Assembly (NCBI GenBank): GCA_029259175.1
Contig: JAPDJH010000002.1
Span: 128,673-192,672, forward strand
DNA from: Hadesarchaea archaeon
GTDB taxonomy: Archaea; Hadarchaeota; Hadarchaeia; Hadarchaeales; Hadarchaeaceae
Length of the DNA: 64,000 nt
Direction: 5' to 3'
The notes beneath the pieces are model-generated. The model did no database searches, was not told where the DNA came from, and was given only the letters and a program-made list of their open reading frames with translations. Position numbers and translations under genes: made by a program. The first letter of the stretch is position 1. Each line of letters opens with the position of its first letter. Positions 1 through 18,289 of this stretch are shown here, piece by piece.

Positions 1-953
1 TAAGCAAATCATTAGGCAACACTATAAATCCTGTTTATCTGGCTCAGAAGTACTCAACAGACGTTCTGAGGTATTTTTTTGCTCGTGAGATTTCTTTTGG
101 TCAAGACGGGGATTTCTCGGAAGAAAACCTGTGTAAACGTTTAAACGACGAACTCGCTGATATCTTGGGCAATTTTGTCCATCGGGTGCTCACATTCATA
201 AAGAATTATTTCGATGGGCGCGTGCCAGAAGGTGAAGTTGACGAAGAATTTTGGTCACAGGTGGTCTCGAAAATAGACAAGATAGACGAGCTGATGGAGA
301 GAGTAGCAATTACGCAGGCGGTGATGGAAATTCTGATGTTGGCCAAGATTGGAAACGAATACTTCCAAAAGCATTCTCCGTGGGAAACCGTGAAATCTGA
401 CCAGAAACGAGCCGCCATGTGCTTGTATAACGCGGTCAATTTGGTGAAATCGCTTTGCATTCTGATAACTCCTTTCATGCCTTCGACAGGCAAAGAATTA
501 GCTAATCAACTGAATTACGAAGTTACTTCTTTAGATCAAGCAAGGCAGCCAGACTTGAAGCCCGGACACGCTATAGGTCAACCGAAGCCGTTGTTCTCCA
601 AAGTAAAAGCGGTTAAAAAGGAAAACTCTCGGATTTCGCTTGAAGAATTCAAGAAGCTGGATTTGCGCGTGGCCAGAGTAGTCTCCGCTGAGCGCATATC
701 TGGCACCACACGTTTGCTTAAGCTGGAAATTGACTTGGGCGATGAATCACGAACGTTGGTCGCCGGGATCGGAGATCAGTATTCTCCGGAGGATTTAGTT
801 GGAAAAAACATAGTGGTTGTCGCCAACCTAAAACCTGCTAAAATCCGAGGAGTTGTTTCCGATGGGATGCTGTTAGCCGCTGAGGATGAGAAAGGTAAAA
901 TTGCGGTGCTTGTTTCCGATAAGGAGGTTAAGCCAGGGAGTAAGGTGAAGTAG
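1..953 (+). CDS. metG: Methionyl-tRNA synthetase, C-terminal portion (gene starts upstream of window); includes anticodon-binding region and C-terminal EMAP/Trbp111-like tRNA-binding domain
   Basis: The frame is open from position 3 (SKSLGNTINPVYLAQKYSTDVLRYFFAREISFGQDGDFSEENL...) and continues into the listed ORF 165..953. The C-terminus LDLRVARVVSAERISGTTRLLKLEIDLGDE...LKPAKIRGVVSDGML is a typical MetRS appended tRNA-binding domain. Confidence 0.85.
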   Translation, partial: SKSLGNTINPVYLAQKYSTDVLRYFFAREISFGQDGDFSEENLCKRLNDELADILGNFVHRVLTFIKNYFDGRVPEGEVDEEFWSQVVSKIDKIDELMERVAITQAVMEILMLAKIGNEYFQKHSPWETVKSDQKRAAMCLYNAVNLVKSLCILITPFMPSTGKELANQLNYEVTSLDQARQPDLKPGHAIGQPKPLFSKVKAVKKENSRISLEEFKKLDLRVARVVSAERISGTTRLLKLEIDLGDESRTLVAGIGDQYSPEDLVGKNIVVVANLKPAKIRGVVSDGMLLAAEDEKGKIAVLVSDKEVKPGSKVK

Positions 954-955
954 TT

Positions 956-1588
956 TTGATTAAGCTCGATCTCCATGTGCATTCCACATATTCTGTCGAT
1001 GGCCGGTGTGATATTAAGGATCTCGTCCGGATAGCAAAAAAGAAAGGTATCGATGGTTTTGCACTCACCGACCACAACACCATCGAGGGGCATAAAGTAC
1101 TTTCGAGATTTAGGAGGAATGACGTTCTCATAATTCCGGGCGTGGAAATAACTAGTTCCAAAGGTCACATTGTTGCACTGGGAATTCGAGATCTCATTCC
1201 TCGAGGTTTGGAGCCAGCCGAAGTGGTGGAGAGGATTAAAGAGCAAGGAGGTGTCGCAATAGCGGCGCACCCTTTTGTGCTTGGTCGGAATCCCAGCTTA
1301 GTTTTTTCAGCAAAATTTGACGCGGTGGAGGGGTTAAACGGGCGGGCGTTTTTTCCCGCTAACCAGCTTGCTCAGAAAGTAGCGCACAATCTGAAGCTAC
1401 CGATGGTTGCGGGTTCGGATGCCCACCGATGTGATGAGATCGGGTGTGTTTTTACGAAACTGAATGCGCACTTTTCCATAGATAGCGTGTTGGAGGAGAT
1501 TCGAAAGGGCAGAACAACCATTGGCGGCAAGCCCTTGTCATTTCCCAAAGTGCTCTGGAGAAGTCTGATAAAAGTATTCGGAAAATGA
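956..1588 (+). CDS. PHP-domain metal-dependent phosphoesterase
   Basis: N-terminal LDLHVHSTYSVDG and HNTIEG are PHP histidine motifs. There is an apparent TTG start 2 nt after the metG stop. Confidence 0.7.
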   Translation: MIKLDLHVHSTYSVDGRCDIKDLVRIAKKKGIDGFALTDHNTIEGHKVLSRFRRNDVLIIPGVEITSSKGHIVALGIRDLIPRGLEPAEVVERIKEQGGVAIAAHPFVLGRNPSLVFSAKFDAVEGLNGRAFFPANQLAQKVAHNLKLPMVAGSDAHRCDEIGCVFTKLNAHFSIDSVLEEIRKGRTTIGGKPLSFPKVLWRSLIKVFGK

Positions 1589-1592
1589 GCGC

Positions 1593-1618
1593 AAGGGCGG
1601 GGGAGAACCCCCGCCCTT
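1593..1618. terminator. GC-rich perfect hairpin (11-bp stem AAGGGCGGGGG / 4-nt loop AGAA) between convergent genes
   Basis: aagggcggggg-agaa-cccccgccctt was read directly. It lies between the PHP stop (1588) and the minus-strand RHH gene stop (1645). TTTT follows on the minus strand. Confidence 0.4.
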
Positions 1619-1644
1619 GAGGGAGGCTGGACCCGAGGCGATGG

Positions 1645-1830
1645 TTATCGTGATTTTCGGGCGTATTCCATCAGTCCTTTGTACCCTAACTCGCGCATCA
1701 CCCAATCGTGAATCATTTTTCGGACGACTTCACTCCGGTTGGTTCCAATACCTACTTTTATCAGATCATCGATGACCTTGAGATACAGGCCGTCTATAAA
1801 GACCCGGACTTCAGCCTTTTTTTCCACCAT
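1645..1830 (-). CDS. Small ribbon-helix-helix (CopG/NikR-like) DNA-binding protein
   Basis: The 61-aa product has a beta-strand then helix pattern (VRVFIDGLYLKVIDDLIKVG...RSEVVRKMIHDWV). A GGAGG sequence lies 7 nt upstream of the ATG. Confidence 0.5.
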   Translation of the reverse strand: MVEKKAEVRVFIDGLYLKVIDDLIKVGIGTNRSEVVRKMIHDWVMRELGYKGLMEYARKSR

Positions 1831-2012
1831 CTTGCCTCCTCTCCTGTTTCAACACCTTTGCTTTGAATTCGCGCTCGAGCTTGGACGGACGCAAGCGTGC
1901 AATTGTTTTCAGTTTTATCATCTCACCCTCCAGCTAGCATCCAGCTAACTTGCATCTATAATCCATCACGAAGGGTTAAAAAGGTTTCGGAGACGTAAAA
2001 AAACCGAGCCGA

Positions 2013-2777
2013 TTATTCTGTTGTTTTTCTGATTATGATTGATTTGTTTTTTCCAAGCCGGATCTCTTGCAGAGCTTTGCTCGCGAGATAAGCAGCTTCT
2101 ACGGGTTTTTTGGCTCCCCCTATCCCTGCCTTTAGCTCAACTCCTAAATCCCTCTTTATACGGGCGAATATCTCAACCATACAATCTTCGCCCAATCCAT
2201 TTGTGATCGCCATGAAGTTGTCACCCCCCATGTAGAAGGTGAGAGCACCCTCACGCAGGAGCTGACTTGCGAGTTCCTGATAGGTCCGCTGGATCAGAAC
2301 ATGTGTGTCGTAAATGGGCTTGGTGTCGGTGAAAAGTGTTGAGTGGTTGATGTCCGCATGTGCAATTTCAACCCAACTATCTCGAAGTTTGCCCAAGATC
2401 TTACCTACCACTACTCCTTTTCTTTCGGGAGATCTGGAACTCCCAGCGCTTTGAAGGGCCAGAGTGGCGTTTACTTGGGCTTCGTAAGCTTTTTCTCCAA
2501 TACCTACTCCCATGCTTGCCGTCAAAGGAAACTCTTGGGCAAACCCTCTCGCAATACTCTCGTGCTGTTCGAGGCTTATTCCGTTGGTTACCCCTATGAG
2601 GTTGTCTTGTCTCGTCTGGAATACCAGCCCACCAAGTTTCCAGAATTTGGCTTGAAAATACGCATACGCCTTGGCTTGTAGGATTTGGAGCTCTGGCTCC
2701 GGGCGAGGTTCTGGGGTGACGGTCCAGGGCCCGTAGTTGTCCAGCTGAATTACGGTGATTTGAAGCTTGGTCATCAA
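2013..2777 (-). CDS. arfA: GTP cyclohydrolase III (ArfA, MJ0145 family)
   Basis: N-terminal KLQITVIQLDNYGPWTVTP and internal YMGGDNFMA match the GGDEF-like archaeal GTP cyclohydrolase III. Confidence 0.75.
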   Translation of the reverse strand: MMTKLQITVIQLDNYGPWTVTPEPRPEPELQILQAKAYAYFQAKFWKLGGLVFQTRQDNLIGVTNGISLEQHESIARGFAQEFPLTASMGVGIGEKAYEAQVNATLALQSAGSSRSPERKGVVVGKILGKLRDSWVEIAHADINHSTLFTDTKPIYDTHVLIQRTYQELASQLLREGALTFYMGGDNFMAITNGLGEDCMVEIFARIKRDLGVELKAGIGGAKKPVEAAYLASKALQEIRLGKNKSIIIRKTTE

Positions 2778-2829
2778 GACAAATACGGGTACGATATAAA
2801 AATAGGTATATACGGAGAGGTGGCATGCA

Positions 2830-4176
2830 ATGAAAATATACTGCGAGACCTATGGGTGCACATCCAACAAAGTAGATGCGGAGATCCTGCGAGGGCTGAT
2901 AGTAGAGTGTGGCCACGAATTAACAGACGACATTCTCCAAGCCGATGTGGTCGTTGTGAATACTTGCGCGGTCAAGGGCACCACCTATAAAAGAATGTTA
3001 AAGCGATTATCTGAACTCAAAAAATCAGATAAACGAATAATCGTTGCCGGGTGCTTGCCCCTCATAGATTTACAAGCTATCAAACACGTCGGAGAGTTTG
3101 ATGGGATAATCGGATGCAAATCATTGAGCAAGTTCCCAGAAATGTTAGAACGTATCGGTCGAGGCGAACGAAATCTTACCTTTGTAGAACCCGTCGCTGA
3201 CAGCAAGCCCATAATGTGTAAGCGCAGATACAGCTCGGTCTGTGCGGCCATCCCCATAGCCGAGGGGTGCGTGTCAGCTTGCTCCTATTGTTCGGTTCGA
3301 TTTGCTCGAGGAAAACTGAGAAGTTTTGATCCTGAGCACATCGTGAATGAAGCTAAACAGTTAGTCCGGTCGGGCTATCGAGAGATTCAGCTGACAGCAC
3401 AAGACACGGCAGCATATGGGCTAGATATCGGAATGCGCTTACCAGAGCTCATTCTACACGTGGCGGAGATACCCGGGGATTTCAGGATCCGAGTAGGAAT
3501 GATGAATCCTCAAAACGTGTTGTCCATGGTTGATGAGCTGATCGACGCCTTTAGACACGAGCGTGTTTACAAGTTCCTTCATCTTCCAGTACAGTCTGGT
3601 TCAGATCGCATTCTGCACACGATGCGGAGAAACTACTCAGTAGACGAGTTCATACACATCGTTCAGGAATTTCAAAAAAAGATTCAAAATTTATTCTTGT
3701 GTACCGATGTGATCGTTGGATTTCCGGGCGAGTCTGAAGAAGACTTCGTTCAAACCAAAGAACTAATCCGGCTGATAGCTCCGGATAAAACCAACATTTC
3801 CAAATTTTACCCCATGCCTGGTACCGAGGCTGCACACATGCCTCAGCTGAACGGCCGGGTTGTTGCACACCGTTCTCGGGAGCTTTCAGCGCTCTGTCGT
3901 GAGATCGGTCGACAAAAGAACGAGTGCTATGTGGGGAAAAAGATGACTGGGTTCGTCATAGAACCGGGAGAAAAAGGTGGTTTTATCCTCAGAAGTGAAA
4001 ACTATAAACAAGTGATAGTGGAACAAGCAGAAGTTGGGGAATTTCTAAGGGTGAAAATCACTGAGGCTTTTCCTACCTATCTAAGAGGAGAACCGCTACA
4101 CAACAACTTTTTCGAAAAGTCAAAAAATCTCGATGGCGGACGACTACGCCGATGTGCTGAACCTGGACCACGATGA
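2830..4176 (+). CDS. mtaB: tRNA t6A37 methylthiotransferase (MiaB/MtaB/CDKAL1 family radical SAM enzyme with TRAM domain)
   Basis: It has an MTTase N-domain (YGCTSNKVDAE...VVVVNTCAV), a radical-SAM CSYCSVRFARG motif and a C-terminal TRAM domain. The last ~15 codons read into a GC-rich foreign segment, so the native stop has probably been replaced. Confidence 0.8.
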   Translation: MKIYCETYGCTSNKVDAEILRGLIVECGHELTDDILQADVVVVNTCAVKGTTYKRMLKRLSELKKSDKRIIVAGCLPLIDLQAIKHVGEFDGIIGCKSLSKFPEMLERIGRGERNLTFVEPVADSKPIMCKRRYSSVCAAIPIAEGCVSACSYCSVRFARGKLRSFDPEHIVNEAKQLVRSGYREIQLTAQDTAAYGLDIGMRLPELILHVAEIPGDFRIRVGMMNPQNVLSMVDELIDAFRHERVYKFLHLPVQSGSDRILHTMRRNYSVDEFIHIVQEFQKKIQNLFLCTDVIVGFPGESEEDFVQTKELIRLIAPDKTNISKFYPMPGTEAAHMPQLNGRVVAHRSRELSALCREIGRQKNECYVGKKMTGFVIEPGEKGGFILRSENYKQVIVEQAEVGEFLRVKITEAFPTYLRGEPLHNNFFEKSKNLDGGRLRRCAEPGPR

Positions 4177-4405
4177 GTCGGCTGAGTATCTGATCCTGGT
4201 GGGGGCGAAGGGCGCGCAGGTGCTCGTCCCGATCCCGAGCTTCTCGACGTACACGATAACCATCACGACCCTGCCCACCCAGCCGGTCGCGCAGCTCCCG
4301 CCGCTCAGGGTCGCGGTCTTCGACGGGATCGCTCTCGCCGCGGCGGTCGTGTTCATCGTGTGGAGAAATCTGAGAAAAGGGACGGGAGCAGGTTTACAGC
4401 CCTAG
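4128..4405. other. Abrupt GC-rich (~65% by eye) segment abutting the 3' end of mtaB
   Basis: The sequence changes from AT-rich tcgaaaagtcaaaaaatctcg to atggcggacgactacgccgatgtgctgaacctggac. ORF 4133..4405 encodes a C-terminal hydrophobic anchor followed by a basic tail (VAVFDGIALAAAVVFIVWRNLRK). Confidence 0.5.
4133..4405 (+). CDS. Hypothetical protein fragment with C-terminal membrane anchor (possible remnant of a surface protein gene)
   Basis: The 90-aa ORF ends with a TM helix followed by RNLRK. GC content is discordant with the neighbouring genes. Confidence 0.3.
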   Translation: MADDYADVLNLDHDESAEYLILVGAKGAQVLVPIPSFSTYTITITTLPTQPVAQLPPLRVAVFDGIALAAAVVFIVWRNLRKGTGAGLQP

Positions 4406-4529
4406 TTGCCGATTGTTCAGTTGTCGTTGCAAAGTGGGAGCTGAAAACGCAAAAAATTTTGAGCTTCAAAATTTGGTCTAACCAAATTTAAAGGCGAAGT
4501 CCTTCAAATCTTTTTGGGAGGCTGGACAA

Positions 4530-4739
4530 GTGAATCGAACTCTTGAGGACTCGGAAATCTCGTTTGGCGTCTCCAGCTACAGCTGGATCTTCAACAACCT
4601 TGAGAATACTGAGCCCTCCGAGTGGGCCGTGACTGGGCCGCTGACGATCGTGCCACCGGCTCCTCTCGTCTACTCCCCGACCCATCCGGTGCAGAGCGAG
4701 TACCAGGGCTTCTTCCTGAGTGGGGTAAGGACGCAGTAG
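4530..4739 (+). CDS. Hypothetical small ORF; its C-terminus shares a 41-bp repeat (VQSEYQGFFLSGV) with the 3' end of the large secreted protein gene
   Basis: The exact 41-bp match 4689-4729 = 9793-9833 was seen in the sequence. Confidence 0.25.
   Translation: MNRTLEDSEISFGVSSYSWIFNNLENTEPSEWAVTGPLTIVPPAPLVYSPTHPVQSEYQGFFLSGVRTQ
4689..4729 (+). repeat. 41-bp direct repeat, copy 1 (gtgcagagcgagtaccagggcttcttcctgagtggggtaag)
   Basis: It is identical to 9793-9833. Confidence 0.9.
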
Positions 4740-4790
4740 CTGTTGTAACCATGAGCACGAAATGGAATCGCGATGGACTTTATTATCGAG

Positions 4791-6160
4791 CTACCAAGTT
4801 CCAGGTTCTTTCGGGGGCGGAACCCCGAATCCCTTGGCCGCCGAACGCTTTCTGAAAAAGCTCATGACACCAGCCGCGGCACATATGAGTATGCCAAGTA
4901 TCAGGATCACAGGCAAATCGAGCTGCAGACTGGTGGGTTGCTCGGGGGGAGGGCCGAAGCAGTAGAGCGTGCCATGAGTCGAGCCCACATATACTCTATT
5001 ATAAGCAACAGCTGGAGATGACGAAATAACATTGACAGTATCATAGCTCCAGATTATCGAACCGTTCTCAACATTCAGCATGCAAAGTTTGCTCCCAGCG
5101 CCGATGATGACTTTCCCGTCCGCGACGGCGGGAGATGAATAAAACCACGTTTCGTCGATGAAGGTGCTCCACACCACCGAGCCGTCCCTTGCATCCAAAG
5201 CGTAAATGCAATTGTTGTATCTGGATCCGAAAATCACCTTGCCGTCAACGACGACGGGGGAATTTGTTATCATCACGTTTTCGGTGTCGAAGTGCCAGAG
5301 GAGTTCCCCGGTGCGTGCGTCGAGTGCCCACACTCCATCGCCAGACAGGTGTCCCATGAATCCAGCGCCGATGTAAAGGACGTTATCAACAACTACTGGC
5401 GAGGTAGGTATCTCATCTCCGATGTGAAACTTCCAGATTAGATTCCCGTTGTCGGCATCCAAAGCATAGACCCAACCAGTATATCCTATTCCTCCCGCTC
5501 CAGTCCCGAAGTACACAATACCATTCACAAATGCGGGTGCCTCCATAACATGTCCCATCGCGCCGCTACCATCGCTGTACTCCCAAATCAACTCACCCGT
5601 GTTTGCGTCTAAGCAATAAAACCACCCATCCCAAGAGCCGAAGTAAACCCGGTTATTCACCACAGCCGGAGCTGAGTCGACCCCGTGGAGCCCTTTACTT
5701 GGCCAAGGAACTTCGAAACGCCATTTCACTTCACCCGTCTCGGCATCGAAAGCGTAGAGATAGTTCTCATCGCCAACATAAACTGTGCCGTCAACAACAG
5801 TTGGAGAAGGGAGAAGACCCCCCCTGCATCCCGGCCAGCCTGATAGCTCCACACTAGCGAGCCGTCCTCGGCATCGAGAGCATAGATGTAAAGATGACCG
5901 TCCATCCTATTCAGCGCCGTGAAATAAACCTTGCCCTCGGCAACAGCGGGCGACGACCCGATGTCTGCGTATCGAGGAGAAAACCACCAGATGACTTCCA
6001 GCTCGTCAGGAATATTCGCTGAAACTAAACCTGTTCGTGCCCAATCGCGACGGAAGGTCGGCCACTCATCATCTATGCTCGGCTGCCCAGCAACGGTCGG
6101 AAGAACGAGGAAAGCCAACCCTAACAGCAAAACCGCTGCCGTTTTCAGACCTGTGTACAT
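4791..6160 (-). pseudogene. PQQ-like beta-propeller repeat membrane protein, frameshifted paralog of 6522..7841
   Basis: ORFs 5726..6331 and 4791..5852 overlap in different frames. Together they are collinear with the intact paralog (signal peptide, TFRRDWARTGL, YIYALD, ...DENYLYAFDAETGEVKWRFEV...). The frame break lies near a C7 run at about 5818-5824. The putative start is 6160. Confidence 0.7.
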
Positions 6161-6218
6161 CGATATCCTTTTGCTTTCAGAACTCTTAAAAAGATGAACA
6201 GCAATTATCAATGAGGGC

Positions 6219-6464
6219 ATGAGCTGGAGGCTGGCCTCTTCGCTCGTAATTTGCCTTGCACTACTTGGTTCGATCGTGCAACCCTTGATGTTGGTGGCTG
6301 TCCAAGAGTTACGGGCGGTGAGTTCTGACACCGATTATTTTAGCTCCCCTTCCTCAGACTCGGAGCAGCCACCGATCATCTCAAACACCGTTGAAGTCTC
6401 CGACGGCTTTCAAGATAACCAAATCTCGCCAGCGGCGCAATACTGGATCGAAAAAACTGAGTGA
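6219..6464 (+). pseudogene. Truncated N-terminal fragment (81 aa) of the secreted Ig/Fn3-like protein gene (paralog of 7903..9942)
   Basis: MSWRLASSLVICLALLGS... versus MGWRLASSVVVCLLLLSS... of the full-length gene. The upstream sequence (aactcttaaaa...) is also duplicated. Confidence 0.55.
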
Positions 6465-6521
6465 AATCAAGAGTGATTTGCTAACCTAAAATAAAACCCA
6501 AGTATCTATAAACCTAACATG

Positions 6522-7841
6522 TCAAAAGTGCCTTCGCTTACCTACAACTCTAGACGCGCCGAATGCAATTGTAACGATGATCACGAGAGAGATACCGAGG
6601 AGCTGGAACCAGTCGAACGAAGTGGTGGATGATAATTTTGGACCATAGCAAATGAGTTCGCCATTCCTATTACCCACAAATATTTTACCATATGCAATTG
6701 CCGGAGACGATGAAATAAGGCCACCAACATCTTGGCTCCAGATTATCGAACCATTCTCAACATCTAGAATGTAAAGTTCGCTCCCCCCCCCCCCGATGAT
6801 GACTTTCCCGCCCGCAACGGCGGGAGATGAATAAAAATATGTTTCGTTGTTGATGGAAGTGCTCCACACCACCGAGCCGTCCCCTGCATCCAAAGCGTAA
6901 ATGCAATTGTTGTATCTGGATCCGAAAATCACCTTGCCGTCAACGACGACGGGGGAATTTGTTATCATCACGTTTTCGGTGTCGAAGTGCCAGAGGAGTT
7001 CCCCGGTGCGCGCATCGAGTGCCCACACTCCATCACCAGATAAATCTCCCATGAAGCCAGCGCCGATGTAAAGGACATTATCAACAACTACTGGCGAGGT
7101 AGTTATCTCATCTCCGATGTGAAACTTCCAGATTAGATTCCCGTTGTCGGCATCTAATGCGTAGACCCAACCGGTGTATCCTACTCCTCCCGCTGCAGTC
7201 CCGAAGTACACGATATCATTCACAAATGCTGGTGCCTCCGTAACGTGTCCCATCGCGCCAACACCATCACTGTACTCCCAAATCAGCTCACCTGTGTTTA
7301 CGTCTACGCAATAAAACCACCCATCCCAAGAGCCGAAGTAAATGCGGTTGTTTACCACAACTGGAGCAGAGTCGACCCCGTGGAGCCCTTTCCTTGGCCA
7401 AGGAACTTCGAAACGCCATTTCACTTCACCCGTCTCGGCATCGAAAGCGTAGAGATAGTTCTCATCACCAACATAAATTGTACCATCAGCAAGAGTTGGG
7501 GAAGGATGACGTCCTCCTCCGGCATCCCGGTTGCCACGGTACTTCCACATAACCGAACCACTCTTAACGTCAAGCGCATAAATGTAAAGATAACCGTCTT
7601 TTCCTACCCCTGTGAAATAAACCTTATTCTCACCAACGGCGGGCGATGATTTAATATCAACTAGTTCCGAAGAAAACTTCCAGATAACTTCGAGTTCGCT
7701 AAGAATGTCTATCGAAGCCAAGCCTGTTCGTGCCCAATCGCGACGAAATGTTGGCCACTCCTCCTCAGTTTGTCCAGCAATTATAGGGACACCAAGCGCG
7801 ATTACTATGAGCAAGACGACCAAGGTGATACGATGTTTCAT
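6522..7841 (-). CDS. PQQ-like beta-propeller repeat protein with N-terminal signal/TM and C-terminal TM anchor
   Basis: There are repeated PQQ-type blades (YALDA.TGELLW, VYVGDENYLYAFDAETGEVKWRF...) and a C-terminal LLGISLVIIVTIAFGASRVVGKRRHF. The real start is probably MKHRITLVVLLIVIALG at 7841; the listed ORF to 8201 looks like an antisense extension. Confidence 0.8.
   Translation of the reverse strand: MKHRITLVVLLIVIALGVPIIAGQTEEEWPTFRRDWARTGLASIDILSELEVIWKFSSELVDIKSSPAVGENKVYFTGVGKDGYLYIYALDVKSGSVMWKYRGNRDAGGGRHPSPTLADGTIYVGDENYLYAFDAETGEVKWRFEVPWPRKGLHGVDSAPVVVNNRIYFGSWDGWFYCVDVNTGELIWEYSDGVGAMGHVTEAPAFVNDIVYFGTAAGGVGYTGWVYALDADNGNLIWKFHIGDEITTSPVVVDNVLYIGAGFMGDLSGDGVWALDARTGELLWHFDTENVMITNSPVVVDGKVIFGSRYNNCIYALDAGDGSVVWSTSINNETYFYSSPAVAGGKVIIGGGGSELYILDVENGSIIWSQDVGGLISSSPAIAYGKIFVGNRNGELICYGPKLSSTTSFDWFQLLGISLVIIVTIAFGASRVVGKRRHF
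6783..6794. repeat. Homopolymeric C12 tract (G12 on the coding strand, encoding GGGG) inside the PQQ-propeller gene
   Basis: ctcccccccccccgatgat was read directly. The paralog has gctcccagcgccgatg at the same site. Confidence 0.9.
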
Positions 7842-7902
7842 GCTTTCCGTACTTTCTTCCTCACAACTCTTAAAAGGTTTGCAAGCAAGCTTCAATGGTG
7901 GT

Positions 7903-9942
7903 ATGGGCTGGAGGCTGGCATCCTCGGTTGTGGTTTGTCTTCTGTTGCTAAGCTCGGTAACTTCATCCGTTGTGCTGGCGAACACGGTCGAAACACAAAT
8001 TTCTAGTTCAGATGATACCAACCTTAGTTTCCATTCCTTGGAGAACTCGCTGTCAATCCTCTCTTCAGACACGGTTGAAATCTCGGAGAACTCCCAAGTT
8101 TCGCCAACCGCGCGACCTTGGATAGACCAGCTAAATGAGTTCGAAAATGCCTTGGTGATGCTCAAGCGTGATTGTGAAAACCTAGATGAAGAACAACTCA
8201 ATCGTCTGGTCTATGAACTTCAGCTGAGTGCCGAGAACTTCGAGAGCGAGTTCTCAAGCACGCTCAGGGCCATTGGGGAGCTGGATAACACGTTGCTCGT
8301 GGTGCGCCCAGATGGGACGCGCTCGGTTGAGGCGACGGTCGGGCAGGACGAGAGGTTCCTGAGGTGGTGTGAAAACGTGTTACAATTAGTGCAAGAGTTC
8401 ACCGAGTGGACCGGCAGACTCCGGGAAAACCTTGAGAAAGTCGATACGGTTCTTGAATATCTTGGGGCGATTAGAGAGCTCATCGAAATGGCACCATCCG
8501 GAAACACCGTCGTCGTAGAAGACTTCTGGCTCGAGCGCTACGAATATGAAGTCGGGTGGGTTAGGATCGAGCCACGCGAGGCTCGCATAGGCGACTACGT
8601 GCGCGTCGGCATAAAGCTTCACAACACGGATTGGCTCGCACGCGGGCGCACGTGGCTGTGGTTCGGGGGATTTCTCGAAGGACTGGAGGGCTACGCCGAC
8701 CTGGGCGCGACCCAGACTTTAACCACATACGTGGACGAGTTCACGATTCCAAGATGGTATCGGGAGGACTACTTTGTCAGCGTTGAGGGTCGCTGGGAGT
8801 CCTGGGCGCTCATTTTCTTCGTCTGGACCAAGACTGGCGAGGGAGAGATATCGAAGCAGGAGCTTGTGATCAACAAACGTCCAAAATCATCTGTCCGACC
8901 TGTCGAACCCCAAGAACCCAGCCCTTGGGGCACCACCTTCACCTACTGGACCGACATCGACGACCCGGACGGCGAAACGGTCACGGTTACCCTTTACAAG
9001 GACGGCATCAAATACGGCGATTCAAAAACCGTCCACGGCTCTGGCTCCCCGAGCTGGACCTGGACTTCGACCGCGGACGACATCGGCGAGCACACCTACT
9101 ACTTCGAGATCACTGACGAGTACGGGGTCACCGTCTACGATCCTCCAACCGGTGTTCATTCCGGCCCCACCGTCACTAAGCGTTCCACAACCCTCACGAT
9201 AACCGTCAGCGACGACACCCCGGCCTTCGGTCAGCTCATAACCTTCACCGGGGAACTCCGCGACGAGTTCGGCGAGCCCGTTGCTGGGAAGACGATTAGG
9301 CTCTACAAGACCAAGATAAATGAAAACCCGGTGGACACGGGGCTGAGCGCCACGACGGACTCGCAGGGTCGCTACACGATTTCATTCGTCTACGAGGATA
9401 CGGAAGTTTTCGGCTACTTCGCTAGCTTCGAGGAGGACAATCTGTACTTCGGCTGCGAAAGCGGCAAAATCTGGATCGGGGACACCGAGCCCCCGCCAGC
9501 CCCCGAGGTCCAATCCGACACCCACCCCGACCCCAACGTGTGGTACGCGCGCTCCGAGGTGGTCTTCAGCTGGCCAACACCCCCGGACGACTCCGGGATC
9601 GTGGGGTACAGCTACGCCCTTGACTCGCTGCCCAACGAAACTATAGAGACGACCGGGAATTCGGTTCTCCTTCAGGATGTGCCGGACGGGGAGCATTGGT
9701 TTTATGTGAGGGCGCAGGATGGTGCCGGCAATTGGACTCCGGATGATGCCGTGGAGAGCAAGGCCTGCCGGGTGCGGATCGACACGAAGGCAGTGCAGAG
9801 CGAGTACCAGGGCTTCTTCCTGAGTGGGGTAAGCATGCCAAACAACTACTACTTCATTCCGCCATCTAATGTCACTGTCACCGGAGTGACCTTCAAGATG
9901 GGCGGTACTTCAGTCCCAGGTGAAAAAAATGAGCGGAGATAG
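7903..9942 (+). CDS. Secreted or surface protein with signal peptide, coiled N-terminal region and C-terminal prealbumin-like (Cna-B/CarbopepD_reg-like) and Fn3-like domains
   Basis: The signal peptide is MGWRLASSVVVCLLLLSSVTSSVVLA. GKTIRLYKTK...TTDSQGRYTISFVY is typical of a Cna-B/carboxypeptidase regulatory-like fold. GEHWFYVRAQDGAGNWTPDD is typical of an Fn3 C-terminal strand. GC rises sharply after about 8520. Confidence 0.65.
   Translation: MGWRLASSVVVCLLLLSSVTSSVVLANTVETQISSSDDTNLSFHSLENSLSILSSDTVEISENSQVSPTARPWIDQLNEFENALVMLKRDCENLDEEQLNRLVYELQLSAENFESEFSSTLRAIGELDNTLLVVRPDGTRSVEATVGQDERFLRWCENVLQLVQEFTEWTGRLRENLEKVDTVLEYLGAIRELIEMAPSGNTVVVEDFWLERYEYEVGWVRIEPREARIGDYVRVGIKLHNTDWLARGRTWLWFGGFLEGLEGYADLGATQTLTTYVDEFTIPRWYREDYFVSVEGRWESWALIFFVWTKTGEGEISKQELVINKRPKSSVRPVEPQEPSPWGTTFTYWTDIDDPDGETVTVTLYKDGIKYGDSKTVHGSGSPSWTWTSTADDIGEHTYYFEITDEYGVTVYDPPTGVHSGPTVTKRSTTLTITVSDDTPAFGQLITFTGELRDEFGEPVAGKTIRLYKTKINENPVDTGLSATTDSQGRYTISFVYEDTEVFGYFASFEEDNLYFGCESGKIWIGDTEPPPAPEVQSDTHPDPNVWYARSEVVFSWPTPPDDSGIVGYSYALDSLPNETIETTGNSVLLQDVPDGEHWFYVRAQDGAGNWTPDDAVESKACRVRIDTKAVQSEYQGFFLSGVSMPNNYYFIPPSNVTVTGVTFKMGGTSVPGEKNERR
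9793..9833 (+). repeat. 41-bp direct repeat, copy 2
   Basis: It is identical to 4689-4729. Confidence 0.9.
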
Positions 9943-11284
9943 ACCCCCGTGCGCTTTGACCATTGCTGGCTCTGATTCTGGCGGCGGTGCGGGAGTTCAG
10001 GCAGATCTTAAAACATTTGCAGCTTTGGGTGTCCATGGTTTGTGTGTTTTAACCTCTGTTACTGCTCAAAACACGCGCGGCGTGCTGGCTATTCATCCGT
10101 TGCCAGCTGGAGCAGTAAAGAAGCAGCTCGAAGCCGTGCTTTCCGATTTTGCTGTGCGTTTCGCGAAAACTGGGATGCTAGCCACGCCCGAGAACATTCG
10201 GGTGATAGAACGCGCTGTCACCCGACACAATTTGCAGTTGGTGGTCGATCCCGTAATGATTTCCACCACTGGTCACCGTCTGATTCAACAAGAAGCTGAA
10301 GAAGAGCTTCTCCGGCTCATTGAGCGCTCCACACTAGTTACCCCGAATGTTTTCGAAGCCCAATTTTTGTCTGGAATAAACATTCACACCGTTAAAGATT
10401 TAGAACGCGCCGCGCGCGAGATCAAACATCGTTTCGGACTTGGAGCAGTGCTAGTAAAAGGAGGCCATCTTTCAAATAGGAAGCTAGCGGTCGACGTGCT
10501 TTTGGTTGGCAGGAAAATCTACCGCTTTAGTTCACCGCGCATAGCTGGCAGATTCCACGGTGCCGGATGTGTGTACTCCGCAGCGATAACAGCGGAATTG
10601 GCAAAAGGTGCGCCCATGGATAGAGCTGTAGAACGCGCGAGAGAATTCATAATCCACGCTTTGGATTCAGCGCTCGAGATAGGAAAGGGTGGTCTCCGGA
10701 CGGTGAACCCACTGGCTCAGCTTTTCCGTCGATTAGCCCAATTGGAGGCAATCGAAGAAATCTGGACGACTGCGAATGAGCTGGTTTCGCACCCCGCGTT
10801 TGTCGATCTTATTCCCGAAGTGGGCACGAACATCGCTGTAGTGTTGCCGGGTGCCCACTCGCTTGAGGATACGGTTGGTTTATCAGGGCGCATAGTTCGA
10901 AGTGGAAGCAAAGCTGTGCTGACCGGCTTTCCACAGCTAGGTGGATCCCAACACGTTGCACGAGCAACACTTACCGCACACCACATCAACCCAGCGATCC
11001 GCGCTGGAATAAACATATGCTTTTCTGAGTCGTTTGTGAAAAAGCTCAAGCAAATGGGCCTATCGGTTTATTCATTCAATCGAAACGCGGAGCCGCCGGG
11101 AGTGAAGACCATGGAATGGGGAATCCGAACAGCACTTCCAAAAAATGTGAAGCCACCGGTGGTGGTGTACGATCGGGGAGGCAAGGGAAAGGAAGCAATG
11201 ATTCGCATTTTTGAAAGCTCTGTAACTCAACTCAAAGCCGTTTTACTCCGTTTGGCAAGCGCCGTTTATAAGCAGCAGAAGTAA
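9920..11284 (+). CDS. thiDN: Bifunctional hydroxymethylpyrimidine/phosphomethylpyrimidine kinase ThiD fused to archaeal ThiN-type thiamine-phosphate synthase domain (ThiDN)
   Basis: The N-terminus ALTIAGSDSGGGAGVQADLKTF is the ThiD signature. The C-terminal ~200 aa is typical of archaeal ThiN fusions. Confidence 0.8.
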   Translation: MKKMSGDRPPCALTIAGSDSGGGAGVQADLKTFAALGVHGLCVLTSVTAQNTRGVLAIHPLPAGAVKKQLEAVLSDFAVRFAKTGMLATPENIRVIERAVTRHNLQLVVDPVMISTTGHRLIQQEAEEELLRLIERSTLVTPNVFEAQFLSGINIHTVKDLERAAREIKHRFGLGAVLVKGGHLSNRKLAVDVLLVGRKIYRFSSPRIAGRFHGAGCVYSAAITAELAKGAPMDRAVERAREFIIHALDSALEIGKGGLRTVNPLAQLFRRLAQLEAIEEIWTTANELVSHPAFVDLIPEVGTNIAVVLPGAHSLEDTVGLSGRIVRSGSKAVLTGFPQLGGSQHVARATLTAHHINPAIRAGINICFSESFVKKLKQMGLSVYSFNRNAEPPGVKTMEWGIRTALPKNVKPPVVVYDRGGKGKEAMIRIFESSVTQLKAVLLRLASAVYKQQK

Positions 11285-11305
11285 TAATGGAAGAGAGGTG
11301 GGCAA

Positions 11306-11521
11306 ATGGGGCGCATCCGAACAGTTTTCGTCAAGCGCATCGCCAGGGAGCTCTTACAACGCTATTCGGATCGTTTTTCCTCAGATTTTGAAAATAACCG
11401 AAAACAAGTGGACGAACTTCTGCCCACTCTTTCGAAGTCAACCCGTAATCGAATCGCAGGCTATATAAGCTCCCTATGTAAACAATCACAGGTGAGCTCG
11501 AATGCCTCCGGTAGTGGATAA
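11306..11521 (+). CDS. rps17e: 30S ribosomal protein S17e (eS17)
   Basis: MGRIRTVFVKRIARELLQRYSDRFSSDFENNRKQVDEL...TRNRIAGYI matches the eS17 family. Confidence 0.8.
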   Translation: MGRIRTVFVKRIARELLQRYSDRFSSDFENNRKQVDELLPTLSKSTRNRIAGYISSLCKQSQVSSNASGSG

Positions 11522-11678
11522 GGAAAAGTGTACTGGATGTGGTTCCTGCGCTCAAGTGTGTCCGGCCAATGTTTTTGACATCGTGGACGGCAAGGCGGTT
11601 GTTGCGCGGTCTCAGGACTGCATCGAGTGCCGAGCGTGTGAAGCAGCGTGTCCTAACAACGCCATCAGCTTTCCATAA
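11502..11678 (+). CDS. Small 2x[4Fe-4S] ferredoxin (58 aa); below the 60-aa cutoff of the ORF track
   Basis: Hand translation gives MPPVVDKEKCTGCGSCAQVCPANVFDIVDGKAVVARSQDCIECRACEAACPNNAISFP*. It has two CxxCxxCxxxCP motifs and overlaps the eS17 tail by ~20 nt. Confidence 0.6.
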   Translation: MPPVVDKEKCTGCGSCAQVCPANVFDIVDGKAVVARSQDCIECRACEAACPNNAISFP

Positions 11679-11709
11679 AGGCAATAAACTCGAAATCCCA
11701 GAGTAGCTG

Positions 11710-12621
11710 TTGATGGGCTTCAAAAATAGGCTAGTGTGTCCGCTGGTTGTAGCTATCGCTATTGAGCTTTGGCTGATATGGCTGTCCTTCGGTGCTAGCA
11801 CCTTTCAAGAACAGATGGGCCTGATATTATTCTCGACTTCTTTTTTCCCGTTGGTTTTACTGATTCTTTTCATCCTTTATCCATCGGAATTCAAGGAGTT
11901 GATTGCTTCACTTCCGCTTCCTTCTCTTCCTCCCAAACCTTCGGTTCAGAGTTCTACACCTTCAGCTGAACCAACATCTCAATCAAAAGCCGCGACTCCA
12001 CGGCCGGGTTCCGTGCCTCCGGGTGCTCCAACCAAGAAGCTACCGGATCTCGCCTCGCAGATTCGCCGGAAACCCGAAATCATCAAGTTGGTTTCTGGTA
12101 GCCCAGAAAAGGACGCCTCTCTCCCAACTACGCGTTCACTTCCCACCATCGTTCCCAAGGGGCTTATCAAACCACCTGCTACTACCGGCCCGGAAAAGTT
12201 CACTACCATCGTTCCGAAACAAATTCTGGAAAAACCTCCTGCCACGCCCAAGCACAGACGATTGGACGCACCTCCGGAACGACCCATCGATCTTCAAACC
12301 CTGATTTCGAAGGCCAAAGGTATGAAGTACGATCTTGCAGGCTGGTGGCCTCTCGGATGGACCCGTGTCATACCCCGCCCCGATCTGCCGGCCCAGTTCT
12401 GGCGCATGAAGCGCGGGAAGCCCACCCATGGTTTGCTGATGGGTCAAGACCGGGAGACTGGAGAGTATGTGGCGTGGGTGGCGACGGTCCGGGATGGAGT
12501 GTTTCGCGGAATCTTCGAGGCTCTCCGGGCCAAGAGCCAGAAGGAGCTGGTGGAACGAGCAAAGGGATTAATGAAGCGAATCGACATGGAGCAAGCAGCG
12601 CTTGCAGAGGATCAATTTTGA
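11710..12621 (+). CDS. Hypothetical membrane protein: two N-terminal TM helices, Pro/Ser/Thr-rich low-complexity linker, conserved-looking C-terminal soluble domain
   Basis: It has LVCPLVVAIAIELWLIWLSF and LILFSTSFFPLVLLILFILY TM segments and a long PxxP-rich linker. No recognisable family. Confidence 0.45.
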   Translation: MMGFKNRLVCPLVVAIAIELWLIWLSFGASTFQEQMGLILFSTSFFPLVLLILFILYPSEFKELIASLPLPSLPPKPSVQSSTPSAEPTSQSKAATPRPGSVPPGAPTKKLPDLASQIRRKPEIIKLVSGSPEKDASLPTTRSLPTIVPKGLIKPPATTGPEKFTTIVPKQILEKPPATPKHRRLDAPPERPIDLQTLISKAKGMKYDLAGWWPLGWTRVIPRPDLPAQFWRMKRGKPTHGLLMGQDRETGEYVAWVATVRDGVFRGIFEALRAKSQKELVERAKGLMKRIDMEQAALAEDQF

Positions 12622-12624
12622 TGA

Positions 12625-12645
12625 GTTAAAAAAATGAAAAATCCC
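12625..12645 (-). terminator. Oligo-T transcription terminator immediately after the 23S rRNA 3' end
   Basis: The minus strand reads GGGATTTTTCATTTTTTTAAC. T-runs are the archaeal termination signal. Confidence 0.45.
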
Positions 12646-13623
12646 GCCGTGCAAAGTGGTGCCCCGGCACCGACGCGAAGGAGAACTTTCGAGCGATTAG
12701 TACCGGTGGGCTGAACGCCTCGCCGAAGCTCGGCGCTTACACCCCCGGCCTATCAACGGGGTCTTCTGGCCCCAGCTCGCGCCCCGACCACCCTTTCGGG
12801 CGATCGGAGCAGGGCGCCTAGTCTAGGGGGCTGCTTCGGCCTTAGATGCTTTCAGGCCTTATCAGCTGGCGCGTGGCTACCCGGCCTGCCCTGTCGGACA
12901 GCCGGTACACCAGAGGCGCCGGCCTCCTGTTCCTCTCGTACTAGGGAGACCTTCCCCGCAGGCGCCCTACGCCCCCGGAAGATAGCATCCGACCTGTCTC
13001 GCGACGGTCTAAACCCATCTCACGTTCCCCTTTAACGGGCGAACAACCCTACCCTTGGCCGCTGCTACACGGCCAGGATGGGAAGAGACGACATCGAGGT
13101 AGCAAACCGCGGGGTCGATGGGGACTCTCGCCCGCGACCACTCTGTTATCCCCGGGGTACCTTTTCTGTCATCCGAGGCCCTCACCAATAGGGCACTCGG
13201 GTTCGCTAGGCCCGGCTTTCGCCCCTGCGAGCCTTGGTAGTGAGCTCGCAGTCAGGCCGGCTTATGGCCTTGCCCTCTACGGCGGATTTCTGACCCGCCT
13301 GAGCCGACCTTTGGGCTCCCTTGTTACCTTTTCGAGGGACTGCCGCCCCAGCGAAACTGCCCACCTGCCGCTGTCCCCACTCCCGAGGAGCGGGTTAGAA
13401 ACACAGCACCGGATGGGCGGTGTTACATTGGCGCCTCCACCGGACCCGGAGGCCCGGCTTCGACGGCTCCCGCCTACGCTCTGCACCCGAGGCCGTGTTC
13501 CAACGACAGGCTGCAGTGAAGGTCCACGGGGTCTTCGCTTCCCTCCGGGGGTCCCCGGCATGTTCTGCCGGCCAGTGGGTTCACCGGGTTCCGGGCTGGG
13601 ACAGTGGGGGGCTCGTTGATCCC

Positions 13624-13655
<32 letters not shown>

Positions 13656-13660
13656 TTACG

Positions 13661-14362
13661 CTACCTTAAGCGCCCTTCTCTCGCGCGAGAAGGGTGGACC
13701 GTATCATCGTCCTCTCTCGAGGACGCCCGGCGTACGGTCTCTGAGGATCCTCCCTCAACGAGCCTTCGGAGTTTTTCCTTCTTCTCCGGATGGCGGAAAC
13801 CCACTACTTCTTGAAATCGTCGCACTCGCTGGAATCCTTTGACCACGAGCGACCACTGTGGGTGCTTTCCCCACCCGCGCGCTTTTTTCACCCGTATCGA
13901 ACTCTCGATTCCAGCCGTTCTCAGGATTCGCTGAACCTCTGTGATAACGGGCTTTGCTATCATGTCTATACCGACATAAGGATATGTGTACACCCGCGCG
14001 CCGTGAGTCTGGATGTCGATTCCGCAGTAGCCCTCCGTGTCGAAGAGTCCTCGCACGATTTCGAGTTCCGATTGCTGGTTTCCCAGAAATGCTTTTGGTA
14101 TCTTGGCGGTTGTCAGCTTCCGGCCCTTTGGATAGCCGAGCTTGCGTAGCAATCGGTGAATTTCGCGCTGGTTGGAGGTCACCGCCCAGCAATTGGGTGC
14201 CACTCGGCGCAGGTTTGGTTTTATTCCAAAGATTTGCTCCACCAGTTTTCCACACCGTTCCACGAACTCCCGGTTTCGATCTCTGCAGAACACGGTGTAG
14301 GAGTTCCCGTACACGCCGCCGTCACCGAGCATCACTCCGATCAGATAGGCCAGCGATCCCAT
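13661..14362 (-). CDS. LAGLIDADG homing endonuclease (double-motif, monomeric type)
   Basis: Two LAGLIDADG-like motifs were found, LAYLIGVMLGDGGV and VRGLFDTEGYCG. The ORF runs 3 codons into the downstream exon. Confidence 0.85.
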   Translation of the reverse strand: MGSLAYLIGVMLGDGGVYGNSYTVFCRDRNREFVERCGKLVEQIFGIKPNLRRVAPNCWAVTSNQREIHRLLRKLGYPKGRKLTTAKIPKAFLGNQQSELEIVRGLFDTEGYCGIDIQTHGARVYTYPYVGIDMIAKPVITEVQRILRTAGIESSIRVKKARGWGKHPQWSLVVKGFQRVRRFQEVVGFRHPEKKEKLRRLVEGGSSETVRRASSREDDDTVHPSRAREGRLR

Positions 14363-14531
14363 TGTCTCTCTTTAAGAGGGACTTTGTTACTATTTATGGA
14401 TTTCTCTGGCTCTCGGGAGTTTCCTGCGGGTCGACCTCATCGAGAACGGACCTTGTTACCTCCAACACGGAGGTAGTCCGTTCCCTATACGTCTTCCCCG
14501 CATACAGCCGGGTTTAACGACCCCCTTCGTC
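13670..14531 (-). mobile_element. 23S rRNA intron (archaeal BHB-spliced type) carrying a homing-endonuclease ORF. It is inserted between ...GGGGTAACTCTGACCCTC and TTAAGGTAGCG..., E. coli ~1927 region
   Basis: The exon junction sequences were identified at 14532-14549 and 13659-13669. The intervening ~860 nt contains the LAGLIDADG ORF plus a ~170-nt 5' leader. Confidence 0.65.
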
Positions 14532-16686: not shown

Positions 16687-16759
16687 TGGACCCGGCGGGA
16701 CTCGAACCCGCGACCTCCGGCTTGCAAAGCCGGCGCTCTACCAGCTGAGCTACAGGCCC
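16687..16759 (-). tRNA. tRNA-Ala (anticodon TGC) in the 16S-23S spacer
   Basis: The minus strand reads GGGCCTGTAGCTCAGCTGGTAGAGCGCCGGCTTTGCAAGCCGGAGGTCGCGGGTTCGAGTCCCGCCGGGTCCA. G3:U70 pair is present. CCA is not encoded. Confidence 0.9.
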
Positions 16760-16793
16760 TTCGAGGGTCCGGTGCTCCAAGGAAAGGAAACTC

Positions 16794-18289
<1,496 letters not shown>

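Follow-up and report, generated by a model that had tools for sequence, protein, structure and literature searches.

In the 64,000-nucleotide stretch of Hadesarchaea archaeon DNA analysed here (GenBank GCA_029259175.1, contig JAPDJH010000002.1, positions 128,673 to 192,672; the window), the 5.8-kb segment 4108-9919 between a MiaB-like gene and thiDN is probably a strain-variable cell-surface gene island. It appears to have been shaped by an old duplication, gene conversion, decay and recombination, and the genes at its borders are truncated. This reading is built on the following observations: a duplication, mosaic identity between the copies, frameshifts, two haplotypes, truncations and a gap in synteny. 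The island holds two copies of a gene for a membrane-anchored β-propeller, PQQ_A and PQQ_B, each divergent from a gene for a secreted protein, of which a short fragment (Sec1N) and a longer copy (Sec2) are present (Table 1). Our map of open reading frames (ORFs) reproduced every coordinate given for PQQ_A, the 81-amino-acid (aa) ORF, PQQ_B and the secreted protein in a preliminary description of this DNA.

Tandem duplication and gene conversion of the propeller gene

Self-BLAST of the window aligned 4984-6073 with 6673-7766 at 84.3% identity over 1100 nt (E=0), and 6177-6257 with 7861-7941 at 74% identity (E=1e-7). The tandem duplication claimed in the preliminary description was thus recovered by pairwise comparison of the two units, which have the same orientation and a period of 1684-1695 nt. 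The shorter alignment spans the intergenic ACTCTTAAAA element and the signal peptides; as had been noticed before, this motif and the MSWRLASS (one unit) or MGWRLASS (other unit) signal peptides are present in both copies. The duplicated unit of about 1.7 kb consists of the propeller gene, a divergent promoter region of about 60 bp and some 90 codons from the 5′ end of the partner gene. The likeness of Sec1N to Sec2 is gone by about position 6495, i.e. at approximately codon 90 of the partner gene, which is the right end of unit A. Since unit A ends at this point, a single 1.7-kb duplication accounts for the 81-aa fragment without a later deletion. The view of a duplicated divergent gene pair accordingly stands for the propeller gene, the promoter and the 5′ end of the partner, with one frameshifted propeller copy and one truncated partner copy, while duplication of the whole pair is not needed. 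We rejected a whole-pair duplication followed by deletion as superfluous, as one 1.7-kb duplication ending near partner codon 90 gives the observed layout.

Both intergenic regions carry an AT-rich element at nearly equal distance from the two start codons that flank it (Table 1), and this TCTTAAAA element is presumably a shared archaeal TATA-type promoter. A scan for sigma-70 promoters and terminators returned counts at or below shuffled expectation and is uninformative for an archaeal host.

In order to date the duplication, the repaired PQQ_A was compared codon by codon with PQQ_B for the proportion of synonymous differences (pS) along the gene. We found pS values of 0.58-0.79 in codons 0-120 and of 0.78-0.79 in codons 400-474, which corresponds to saturation, but of only 0.08-0.26 in codons 120-360. 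The central ~800 bp are 86-100% identical, and the identity between the copies drops sharply from 0.98 to 0.67 at about position 5775. The longest exact run shared by the copies measures 126 nt, compared to a maximum of 55 nt in 2000 shuffles. Because synonymous sites are saturated at both ends of the propeller gene, the duplication is old, and the low central pS together with the 126-nt tract indicates that the centre was homogenised later and repeatedly by gene conversion. Judged by sequence, this is an old tandem duplication with ongoing gene conversion of its centre. In the 5′ third, copy A is nearer than copy B to the propeller of the outgroup contig L002 (proportion of nonsynonymous differences, pN, 0.23-0.43 vs 0.34-0.54). 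Three SPAdes contigs (L001, L004 and L008) all end exactly 55 nt into the 126-nt tract, as expected when a k=55 assembly graph branches at a true repeat.

Inactivation of copy A

The preliminary description had noted that copy A is split into two frames near a C7 run and had left the choice between a pseudogene and a sequencing slip. We located the break in this run at 5818-5824, which reads G7 on the coding strand. Addition of one G yields a 456-aa ORF that has no further lesion and is colinear with PQQ_B; at the equivalent site, copy B reads GGAGGAGGA. The G7 run is identical in four assemblies, namely the window, L012, L008 and L009, of which L012 is a 200-kb contig from a third sample with 15.6x coverage. 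In addition, the exact 144-aa N-terminal product of PQQ_A is recorded in two further ENA assemblies, L008 and L009. No intact copy A was present in its 90%-identity cluster (cluster 1, three members, in a collection of 15 billion proteins) or among the 120 matches listed. Since the same lesion occurs in four assemblies, it is no sequencing error, and the presence of only one lesion implies a recent event; copy A is without polymorphism among the available strains. The frameshift in copy A is therefore real, and the inactivation apparently recent.

A second haplotype and its recombinant propeller gene

The duplicated arrangement, haplotype I, is found in the window and in L012. We identified a second haplotype with a single propeller gene in L014, a 30-kb SPAdes contig that is also held at NCBI, and in L011, which Logan assembled at k=31 from another run. 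The propeller gene of haplotype II is a hybrid, of which the 5′ part is 100% identical to copy B and the 3′ part 100% identical to copy A, with the switch inside the 126-nt tract. The sequence of L011 agrees 100% with A as far as 5315 and then with B, starting at 6885; L014 has the same join and zero single-nucleotide polymorphisms (SNPs) in 4108-5315 and 7011-7926. The hybrid propeller has 451 aa and carries neither the G7 lesion nor the G12 tract of copy B (Table 1). L011 ends in a 41-nt repeat on both sides, yet it runs through the 126-nt tract. Since a k=31 contig that breaks at the 41-nt repeat passes the 126-nt tract unbroken, the L011 sample lacks the intervening loop, and the hybrid is no product of assembly collapse.

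It is a general mechanism that tandem paralogues evolve in concert through gene conversion and that their arrays collapse via unequal or homologous recombination. The locus resembles it in its mosaic divergence, saturated ends, near-identical centre, long exact tract and recombinant single-copy derivative joined inside the tract. The sole unusual feature here is that the recombinant loses both inactivating lesions at once.

We considered whether the duplication, the frameshifts or the hybrid could have been produced by metagenome assembly or binning, through collapse or expansion of repeats or through homopolymer miscalls. The data do all come from short-read metagenome assembly, the repeat interrupts contigs in two samples, poly-G is a known weak spot of Illumina sequencing, and mismatches that look like errors are seen at the contig tips of L008 and L001. 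The 15 mismatches of L008 are confined to the final 140 nt of this 4.9x contig and show a bias to C, so that we rejected them as strain variation and regard them as contig-tip errors. An artefact is nevertheless hardly credible: with 16% of positions different between the copies and ends unique to each, expansion of one copy cannot have produced them, and both the 15.6x contig L012 and the window span the whole array. Moreover, the unique junction from Sec1N to the 3′ end of copy B is confirmed in L008, and two samples, processed with different assemblers, both link the hybrid to a distinct allele of the secreted-protein gene.

The direction of the change between haplotypes, a deletion from the duplicated state, is favoured by parsimony only. 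In the opposite direction, the hybrid would be ancestral and the duplication would be the recent single-crossover integration of a 1.7-kb circle bearing a diverged propeller (5′ part of A, centre, 3′ part of B) and the promoter. The extra 1695 bp, once circularised, do comprise exactly one complete propeller gene, the promoter and the 5′ end of the secreted-protein gene, and the flanks are 100% identical between the haplotypes, so that the event would be recent. We consider such an integration improbable. It requires an external donor with a centre 86-100% identical but with saturated ends, which is what a pop-out product of the duplicated locus would look like, whereas a deletion between 126-nt direct repeats takes one step. 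The segment was not found as a free copy or integrated at another site, and cluster 1 has three members only.

The haplotypes differ at 117 positions (~10%) within the 5′ part of Sec2, while the flanks are 0.17% divergent and 9090-9822 is essentially identical. The allelic differences occur in patches with pS of 0.3-0.66 between identical stretches, and the ratio of nonsynonymous to synonymous divergence (dN/dS) is 0.2-0.4. The haplotype II allele is the AT-richer one (54 vs 31 sites, p=0.017). Such a pattern corresponds to mosaic recombination between alleles. Within haplotype I, L012 is 99.87% identical to the window over 1-18072, and all 22 SNPs lie outside the island. The SNP-free stretch between these two strains extends over 3870-10611, with the 22 SNPs located in the 11.3 kb on either side and about 12 expected in the stretch at the mean rate, which suggests a recent exchange or sweep of this segment between strains.

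The secreted protein

Sec2 contains, in this order, a signal peptide, a helical N-module, an Ig-like domain with the motif WGTTFTYW, a CarboxypepD_reg/Big-like domain, one Fn3-like repeat and a QSEYQGFFL motif. Only weak Pfam matches to Ig-like domains were obtained; Sec2 has no PDB relative by sequence, and the N-module is without a relative in Pfam, NCBIfam or PDB. The AlphaFold model, calculated from a 3-sequence alignment, is poor (pLDDT 46.7). An exhaustive HMMER search with Sec2 returned 1432 proteins, compared to 4 in a word-index search with the full protein. Sec2 is colinear over aa 2-544 with the N-termini of the giant proteins P0132 (2333 aa), P0135 (2814 aa) and P0142 (2031 aa), the individual alignments covering aa 2-544 for P0132 and 2-531 for P0142, and aa 4-667 for P0002. 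The unit at aa 527-630 is Fn3-like and is repeated up to 39 times in the giant relatives.

The preliminary description had called this protein full-length, which was not borne out. P0002 (919 aa), the closest full homologue, extends ~190 aa past the end of Sec2, and relatives in general run on for 190 to >1600 residues. Homology of Sec2 reaches about position 9903, and the ORF ends only by entering thiDN, with its stop codon 14 nt inside that gene. Sec2 is thus, by comparison with its homologues, a 3′-truncated N-terminal stump of a family of giant surface proteins that reach 2000-2800 aa. It is similar to the giant Ig/Fn3-repeat surface proteins P0130-P0135 and P0142 (1700-5800 aa) in its colinear aa 2-544 and in the shared Fn3-like unit, and one of these proteins has a C-terminal anchor module to which the relic at 4133-4405 is similar. 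It differs from them in having one Fn3-like repeat and in lacking the C-terminal parts and the anchor.

In public gene calls, PQQ_B starts 77 codons too early (P0127, 516 aa; P0006), antisense to the 5′ end of Sec2 (7842-8072, minus strand), and Sec2 is called from an internal Met (P0129, 594 aa; P0001, 596 aa), by which the signal peptide is lost (7903-8151, plus strand). The second error follows from the first, since the over-extended PQQ_B call leads to the internal start. The locus therefore provides a warning for annotation: a spurious 77-aa extension of PQQ_B hides the signal peptide of its partner, and what appears as a 679-aa secreted protein is the stump of a giant family.

The GC content at third codon positions (GC3) of Sec2 is 0.55-0.57 in the first 120 codons and 0.62-0.80 thereafter, compared to ~0.55 in the propeller genes. 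The compositional step noted in the preliminary description is real. The further proposal, capture of GC-rich Ig/Fn3 C-terminal domains by horizontal transfer onto an AT-rich N-terminus, was not supported, and we regard it as very improbable. It could draw on the change of GC3 from 0.55 to 0.75 near 8260, ~90 nt beyond the end of the duplicated unit, and on the likewise high GC3 (0.77-0.85) of the relics at 4133-4739. However, the whole architecture is colinear in homologues of other lineages, the homologue in L002 has a weaker version of the same trend, and both GC3 levels lie inside the range of the other genes in the window (0.49-0.79). The domain architecture is ancestral, because the same order of signal peptide, helical N-module, Ig-like domains, Fn3-like domain and QSxYxGFFL motif is found in P0002, P0132, P0135 and P0142. 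Homologous allelic recombination with relatives of differing composition is the simpler explanation of the GC3 step, and we prefer it because mosaic exchange with compositional bias is seen directly between the two haplotypes, of which the other allele is the AT-richer.

The propeller protein and conservation of the pair

PQQ_B matched the Pfam model PQQ_2 (PF13360) with an E-value of 2.8e-45 (155 bits, cut-off 27.6), and related propeller models matched as well. Its eight blades carry seven LDxxxGxxxW motifs and are flanked by a signal or anchor helix on the N-terminal side and by a transmembrane helix on the C-terminal side. In agreement, the AlphaFold model (23 sequences, pLDDT 84.9) comprises an N-terminal helix, an eight-bladed propeller at about residues 40-401 with ~33 strands, and a C-terminal helix at 411-437. 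Foldseek aligned the model with the eight-bladed designer protein Cake8 at a TM-score of 0.91 and with BamB at ~0.8, and phmmer gave a match to BamB at 1e-23.

The likeness to BamB, Cake8 and other PQQ_2 propellers lies in the fold and the repeat motif. We rejected an identity with BamB, since TIGR03300 scored 122.9 bits (cut-off 285.2), the first 27 aa contain no Cys, and the genome is archaeal; unlike BamB, the propeller of the window is without a lipobox, has a C-terminal transmembrane anchor and belongs to a host without an outer membrane. A PQQ-dependent dehydrogenase was rejected likewise (TIGR03075, 112 bits vs a cut-off of 480; a propeller of ~370 aa vs ~570-600 aa). Fold and topology together point to a type-I membrane-anchored, presumably non-enzymatic docking propeller on the cell surface.

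The pair is also found in single-copy arrangement, in L002, where a propeller gene on the minus strand and a gene for a 919-aa Sec homologue on the plus strand are 69 bp apart and share 36-55% aa identity with the pair of the window. Two large basic ORFs of 490 and 472 aa lie beside the pair on this Logan contig (L002, 518-3699), without a Pfam match or a relative in the window, and may represent a mobile or plasmid-like context. A scan of JGI metagenomes for further Sec loci yielded one weak, domain-only locus, L010. Not every propeller gene is paired in this way. L013 (328-3079, JGI 3300045482) carries two same-strand tandem propeller paralogues with 70% identity to those of the L002 type and 61% to those of the window type, and in L015 (7045-8349) a 63%-identical propeller orthologue lies among NTP_transf_2/HepT and MazE/PIN toxin-antitoxin genes.

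The poly-G tract of copy B

The G12 tract in PQQ_B (C12 on the plus strand) is the sole homopolymer of >8 nt in the 64-kb window, in which 0.017 would be expected, and likewise across ~130 kb of fetched related loci. L012 has C10 at this site, a deletion of 2 nt and its sole difference from the window inside the island. The deletion frameshifts PQQ_B, by which the last blades and the membrane anchor are lost; the product P0006 ends in ...VIIGGGERTLHSRC*. In the L012 assembly, both propeller copies are thus broken.

Poly-G/C tracts phase-vary surface genes in Campylobacter, Neisseria and Haemophilus, where they constitute contingency loci. The locus resembles these bacterial systems in having a long poly-G tract inside an ORF for a surface protein, of which the length apparently differs between near-clonal relatives and would toggle the frame. 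It differs from them in its archaeal host, in the position of the tract near the 3′ end and in the two lengths seen. We know of no well-documented example of phase variation in Archaea. If the polymorphism of the tract is real and reversible, the locus would be a concrete candidate for one.

An adaptive contingency locus, in which the G12 tract of B, the G7/G8 tract of A and recombination between the copies reversibly switch the surface propeller or swap its ends, is accordingly conceivable, though rather unlikely. It would be in line with the uniqueness of the tract, its change from 12 to 10 between strains that are otherwise identical over the 5.8-kb island, and the predicted surface location of the protein. 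Reading frames further imply three states in near-identical strains (B on, both off, hybrid on), and each copy has evolved its own G-run where the other copy has mixed sequence. On the other hand, the tract lies 80% into the ORF, away from the 5′ end, and its length has been seen twice only, both times in short-read assemblies. The G7 run of A does not vary among the four assemblies, none of which has G8, and a 2-nt change together with a fixed frameshift is equally compatible with one-way decay. Homopolymer tracts in 18 archaeal genomes have been surveyed (PMC2831843), and the survey passages of that paper treat them statistically only and report no archaeal case of switching. A two-tier version of the idea appears doubtful; here, poly-G slippage from 12 to 10 would toggle the propeller, and the frameshifted paralogue would serve as a reservoir from which an intact, tract-free hybrid is rebuilt via the conversion-maintained core, so that slippage and cassette-like recombination would together vary the surface of an uncultured archaeon of subsurface or thermophilic habitat. 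With two tract lengths only, both from short-read assemblies, we did not assign the locus to the contingency loci.

Table 1 Features of the island and its flanks (positions in the window).
Feature	Position	Strand	Description
MiaB-like-B (e-MtaB type) radical-SAM methylthiotransferase	2830-4176	+	Left flank; Pfam UPF0004, Radical_SAM, TRAM; NCBIfam TIGR01578 454 bits, aa 2-421
Relic 1	4133-4405	+	Last ~90 aa of a large Fn3-repeat surface protein: ADDYxDxL...EYLIL...GAQxLVxIPxFSxxTITI module, C-terminal transmembrane helix, basic tail
Relic 2 (frag0)	4530-4739	+	End of Fn3-like repeat, linker PPAPLVYSPTHP, then directly the VQSEYQGFFLSGV motif; GC3 0.77
41-nt exact direct repeat	4689-4729 = 9793-9833	+	100% identity, E ~1e-14; both copies in frame, encoding VQSEYQGFFLSGV; in both haplotypes
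PQQ_A	4791-6160	-	ORFs in two frames, 4791-5852 and 5726-6160; single-lesion pseudogene of a membrane-anchored eight-bladed propeller
126-nt exact tract	5190-5315 = 6885-7010		Core of homogenised centre; crossover site of single-copy haplotype
G7 run, coding strand (C7 on +)	5818-5824	-	-1 frameshift; G8 needed for open frame
Divergent intergenic region, unit A	6161-6218		AT-rich TATA-like element TCTTAAAAAG at 6184-6193, 29-30 nt from both start codons; conserved with unit B
Sec1N	6219-6464	+	81-aa 5′ fragment of secreted-protein gene: signal peptide (hydrophobic N-terminus) and Ser-rich linker
PQQ_B	6522-7841	-	Intact 439-aa propeller in the window
G12 tract, coding strand (C12 on +)	6783-6794	-	PQQ_B codons 350-353 (GGGG); apparently length-polymorphic
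Divergent intergenic region, unit B	7842-7902		Same TCTTAAAA element at 7868-7875, 30-31 nt from both start codons
Sec2	7903-9942	+	679 aa from ATG at 7903; secreted Ig/Fn3-like protein, 3′-truncated
Allelic mosaic segment	7927-9089	+	Haplotype II (L014, L011) differs at 117 positions, ~10%
ThiD-ThiN fusion gene	9929-11284	+	Right flank; Pfam; followed by S17e and ferredoxin genes; synteny with L005

Borders of the island

A scan of GTDB with ThiDN gave one useful relative, the Hadarchaeota contig L005 from a metagenome-assembled genome. In L005, the genes for GTP cyclohydrolase III, the MiaB-like protein, ThiDN, S17e and ferredoxin follow in the same order with 46-63% aa identity, and the MiaB-like and ThiDN genes are ~20 nt apart, with the island absent. 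In the window, thiDN is now directly downstream of Sec2 on the same strand, whereas in L005 it directly follows the MiaB-like gene. Homology of the MiaB-like protein stops near 4107, and the L005 orthologue ends at query residue 426; the ORF of the window gains ~22 unrelated codons (4108-4176) from the island.

Relic 1, cut on its 5′ side at the MiaB-like junction, shares 58% identity across 45 aa with residues 695-739 of P0258, a protein of 776 aa that also ends in a transmembrane helix. The hydrophobic segment of the relic is at aa 55-80, and its GC3 is 0.85. Relic 2 lacks the ~95-aa domain that parts the linker and the VQSEYQGFFLSGV motif in Sec2. By tblastn, it matched two separate places in Sec2 (aa 42-53 and 44-66) as well as the repeat end and linker of P0258. 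The 41-nt repeat shared with Sec2 marks a third relic of the secreted-protein gene. Between the two relics lies an AT-rich non-coding spacer of ~125 nt (4406-4529, GC ~0.40) that contains AAAATTTTGAGCTTCAAAATTT. A circular permutation, in which the left relics would be the missing C-terminus of Sec2 after integration of a circle inside the Sec gene, was rejected: frag0 repeats a motif that Sec2 already has, and the relic with the anchor is located on the upstream side of frag0 and resembles another type of protein.

The two island borders have no significant repeat in common (best local score 17; shuffled sequences averaged 14.3, and 70 of 500 reached this score). A site-specific insertion or an integrated mobile element was rejected, as there is no border repeat, no integrase-like ORF, no tRNA nearby and no match to a viral contig.

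Proposed history and relation to known systems

We propose that the working unit of the locus is the divergent pair of a type-I membrane-anchored, BamB/PQQ-like propeller and the N-terminal part of a giant secreted protein with Ig/Fn3 repeats. A 1.7-kb segment with the propeller gene, the shared promoter and ~90 partner codons would have been duplicated in tandem long ago. The ends of the propeller copies would then have diverged to synonymous saturation, while repeated conversion would have kept the central ~800 bp 86-100% identical. More recently, copy A would have been killed by a -1 slip in its G-run, and copy B carries the slippage-prone G12, which is already an out-of-frame G10 in the sister strain. 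In another strain, recombination across the 126-nt tract would have deleted one unit and left an intact hybrid (5′ part of B, 3′ part of A) without either lesion. The partner gene would exchange mosaic segments with diverged alleles, and both borders are scars: on the left, the 3′ relic of a surface protein is fused to the end of the MiaB-like gene, and on the right, Sec2 is truncated against thiDN.

In functional terms, the propeller might be a membrane-bound docking or organising partner of the secreted Ig/Fn3 protein at the surface, and selection on surface structures, for example for virus avoidance, might drive the turnover. The preliminary view of an evolving surface-protein locus can thus be kept for duplication, decay and ongoing variation of surface genes, but not for domain capture.

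The closest concept is that of the flexible ("metagenomic") cell-surface genomic island of archaeal and bacterial populations. The locus represents ordinary surface-gene turnover, a known kind of phenomenon. Its surface genes are at a site that is empty in L005, and haplotypes I and II differ while their flanks are at 0.12-0.17% divergence. An example is the cell-wall island of Haloquadratum walsbyi, in which surface genes vary between co-occurring strains by homologous recombination under purifying selection (PMC4535781). The common feature is a fixed site at which surface genes differ in near-identical strains, here in the form of two haplotypes and a Sec mosaic with dN/dS of ~0.3 between flanks that diverge by 0.1-0.2%. 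The island of the window differs in its smaller size (5.8 kb), in having no glycosylation, S-layer biosynthesis or mobile-element genes, in being dominated by relics and a tandem duplicate and in its lineage.

Several points weigh against a strain-variable island with this history. The pair is seen in two lineages only, and the propeller orthologue in L015 has no Sec partner. A single outgroup, L005 at ~47% aa identity, shows the empty site, so that insertion and deletion are not polarised, and a Campbell-type insertion of a 1.7-kb circle would yield the same haplotype sequences. The seemingly independent assemblies may come from one study or site and thus sample one population. Finally, the difference between G12 and G10 is weak evidence, as it stems from two Illumina assemblies and long poly-G tracts are error-prone. 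Taken as a strain-variable island, the locus provides a base-by-base view of the remodelling of an archaeal cell surface, with duplication, conversion, slippage, recombinational collapse and allelic exchange within 6 kb, among strains that differ by ~0.1-0.2% elsewhere.

Neighbouring genes

The window also contains an rRNA operon (12678-18288), which is in line with its archaeal origin. A Pro/Ser/Thr-rich ORF of 303 aa with an N-terminal hydrophobic region (11710-12621, plus strand) follows the ferredoxin gene and precedes the 3′ end of the 23S rRNA gene; the gene table of L012 lists no Pfam match for it. The 23S rRNA gene (12678-16574, minus strand) measures 3897 nt compared to 2987 nt in the Rfam model, and its GC content falls from ~0.65 to 0.53 around 13650-14400. 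An ORF of 233 aa lies inside it (13661-14362, minus strand) and is assigned a LAGLIDADG_3 domain in the gene table of L012, a near-identical contig; the insert is probably an rRNA intron with a homing endonuclease.

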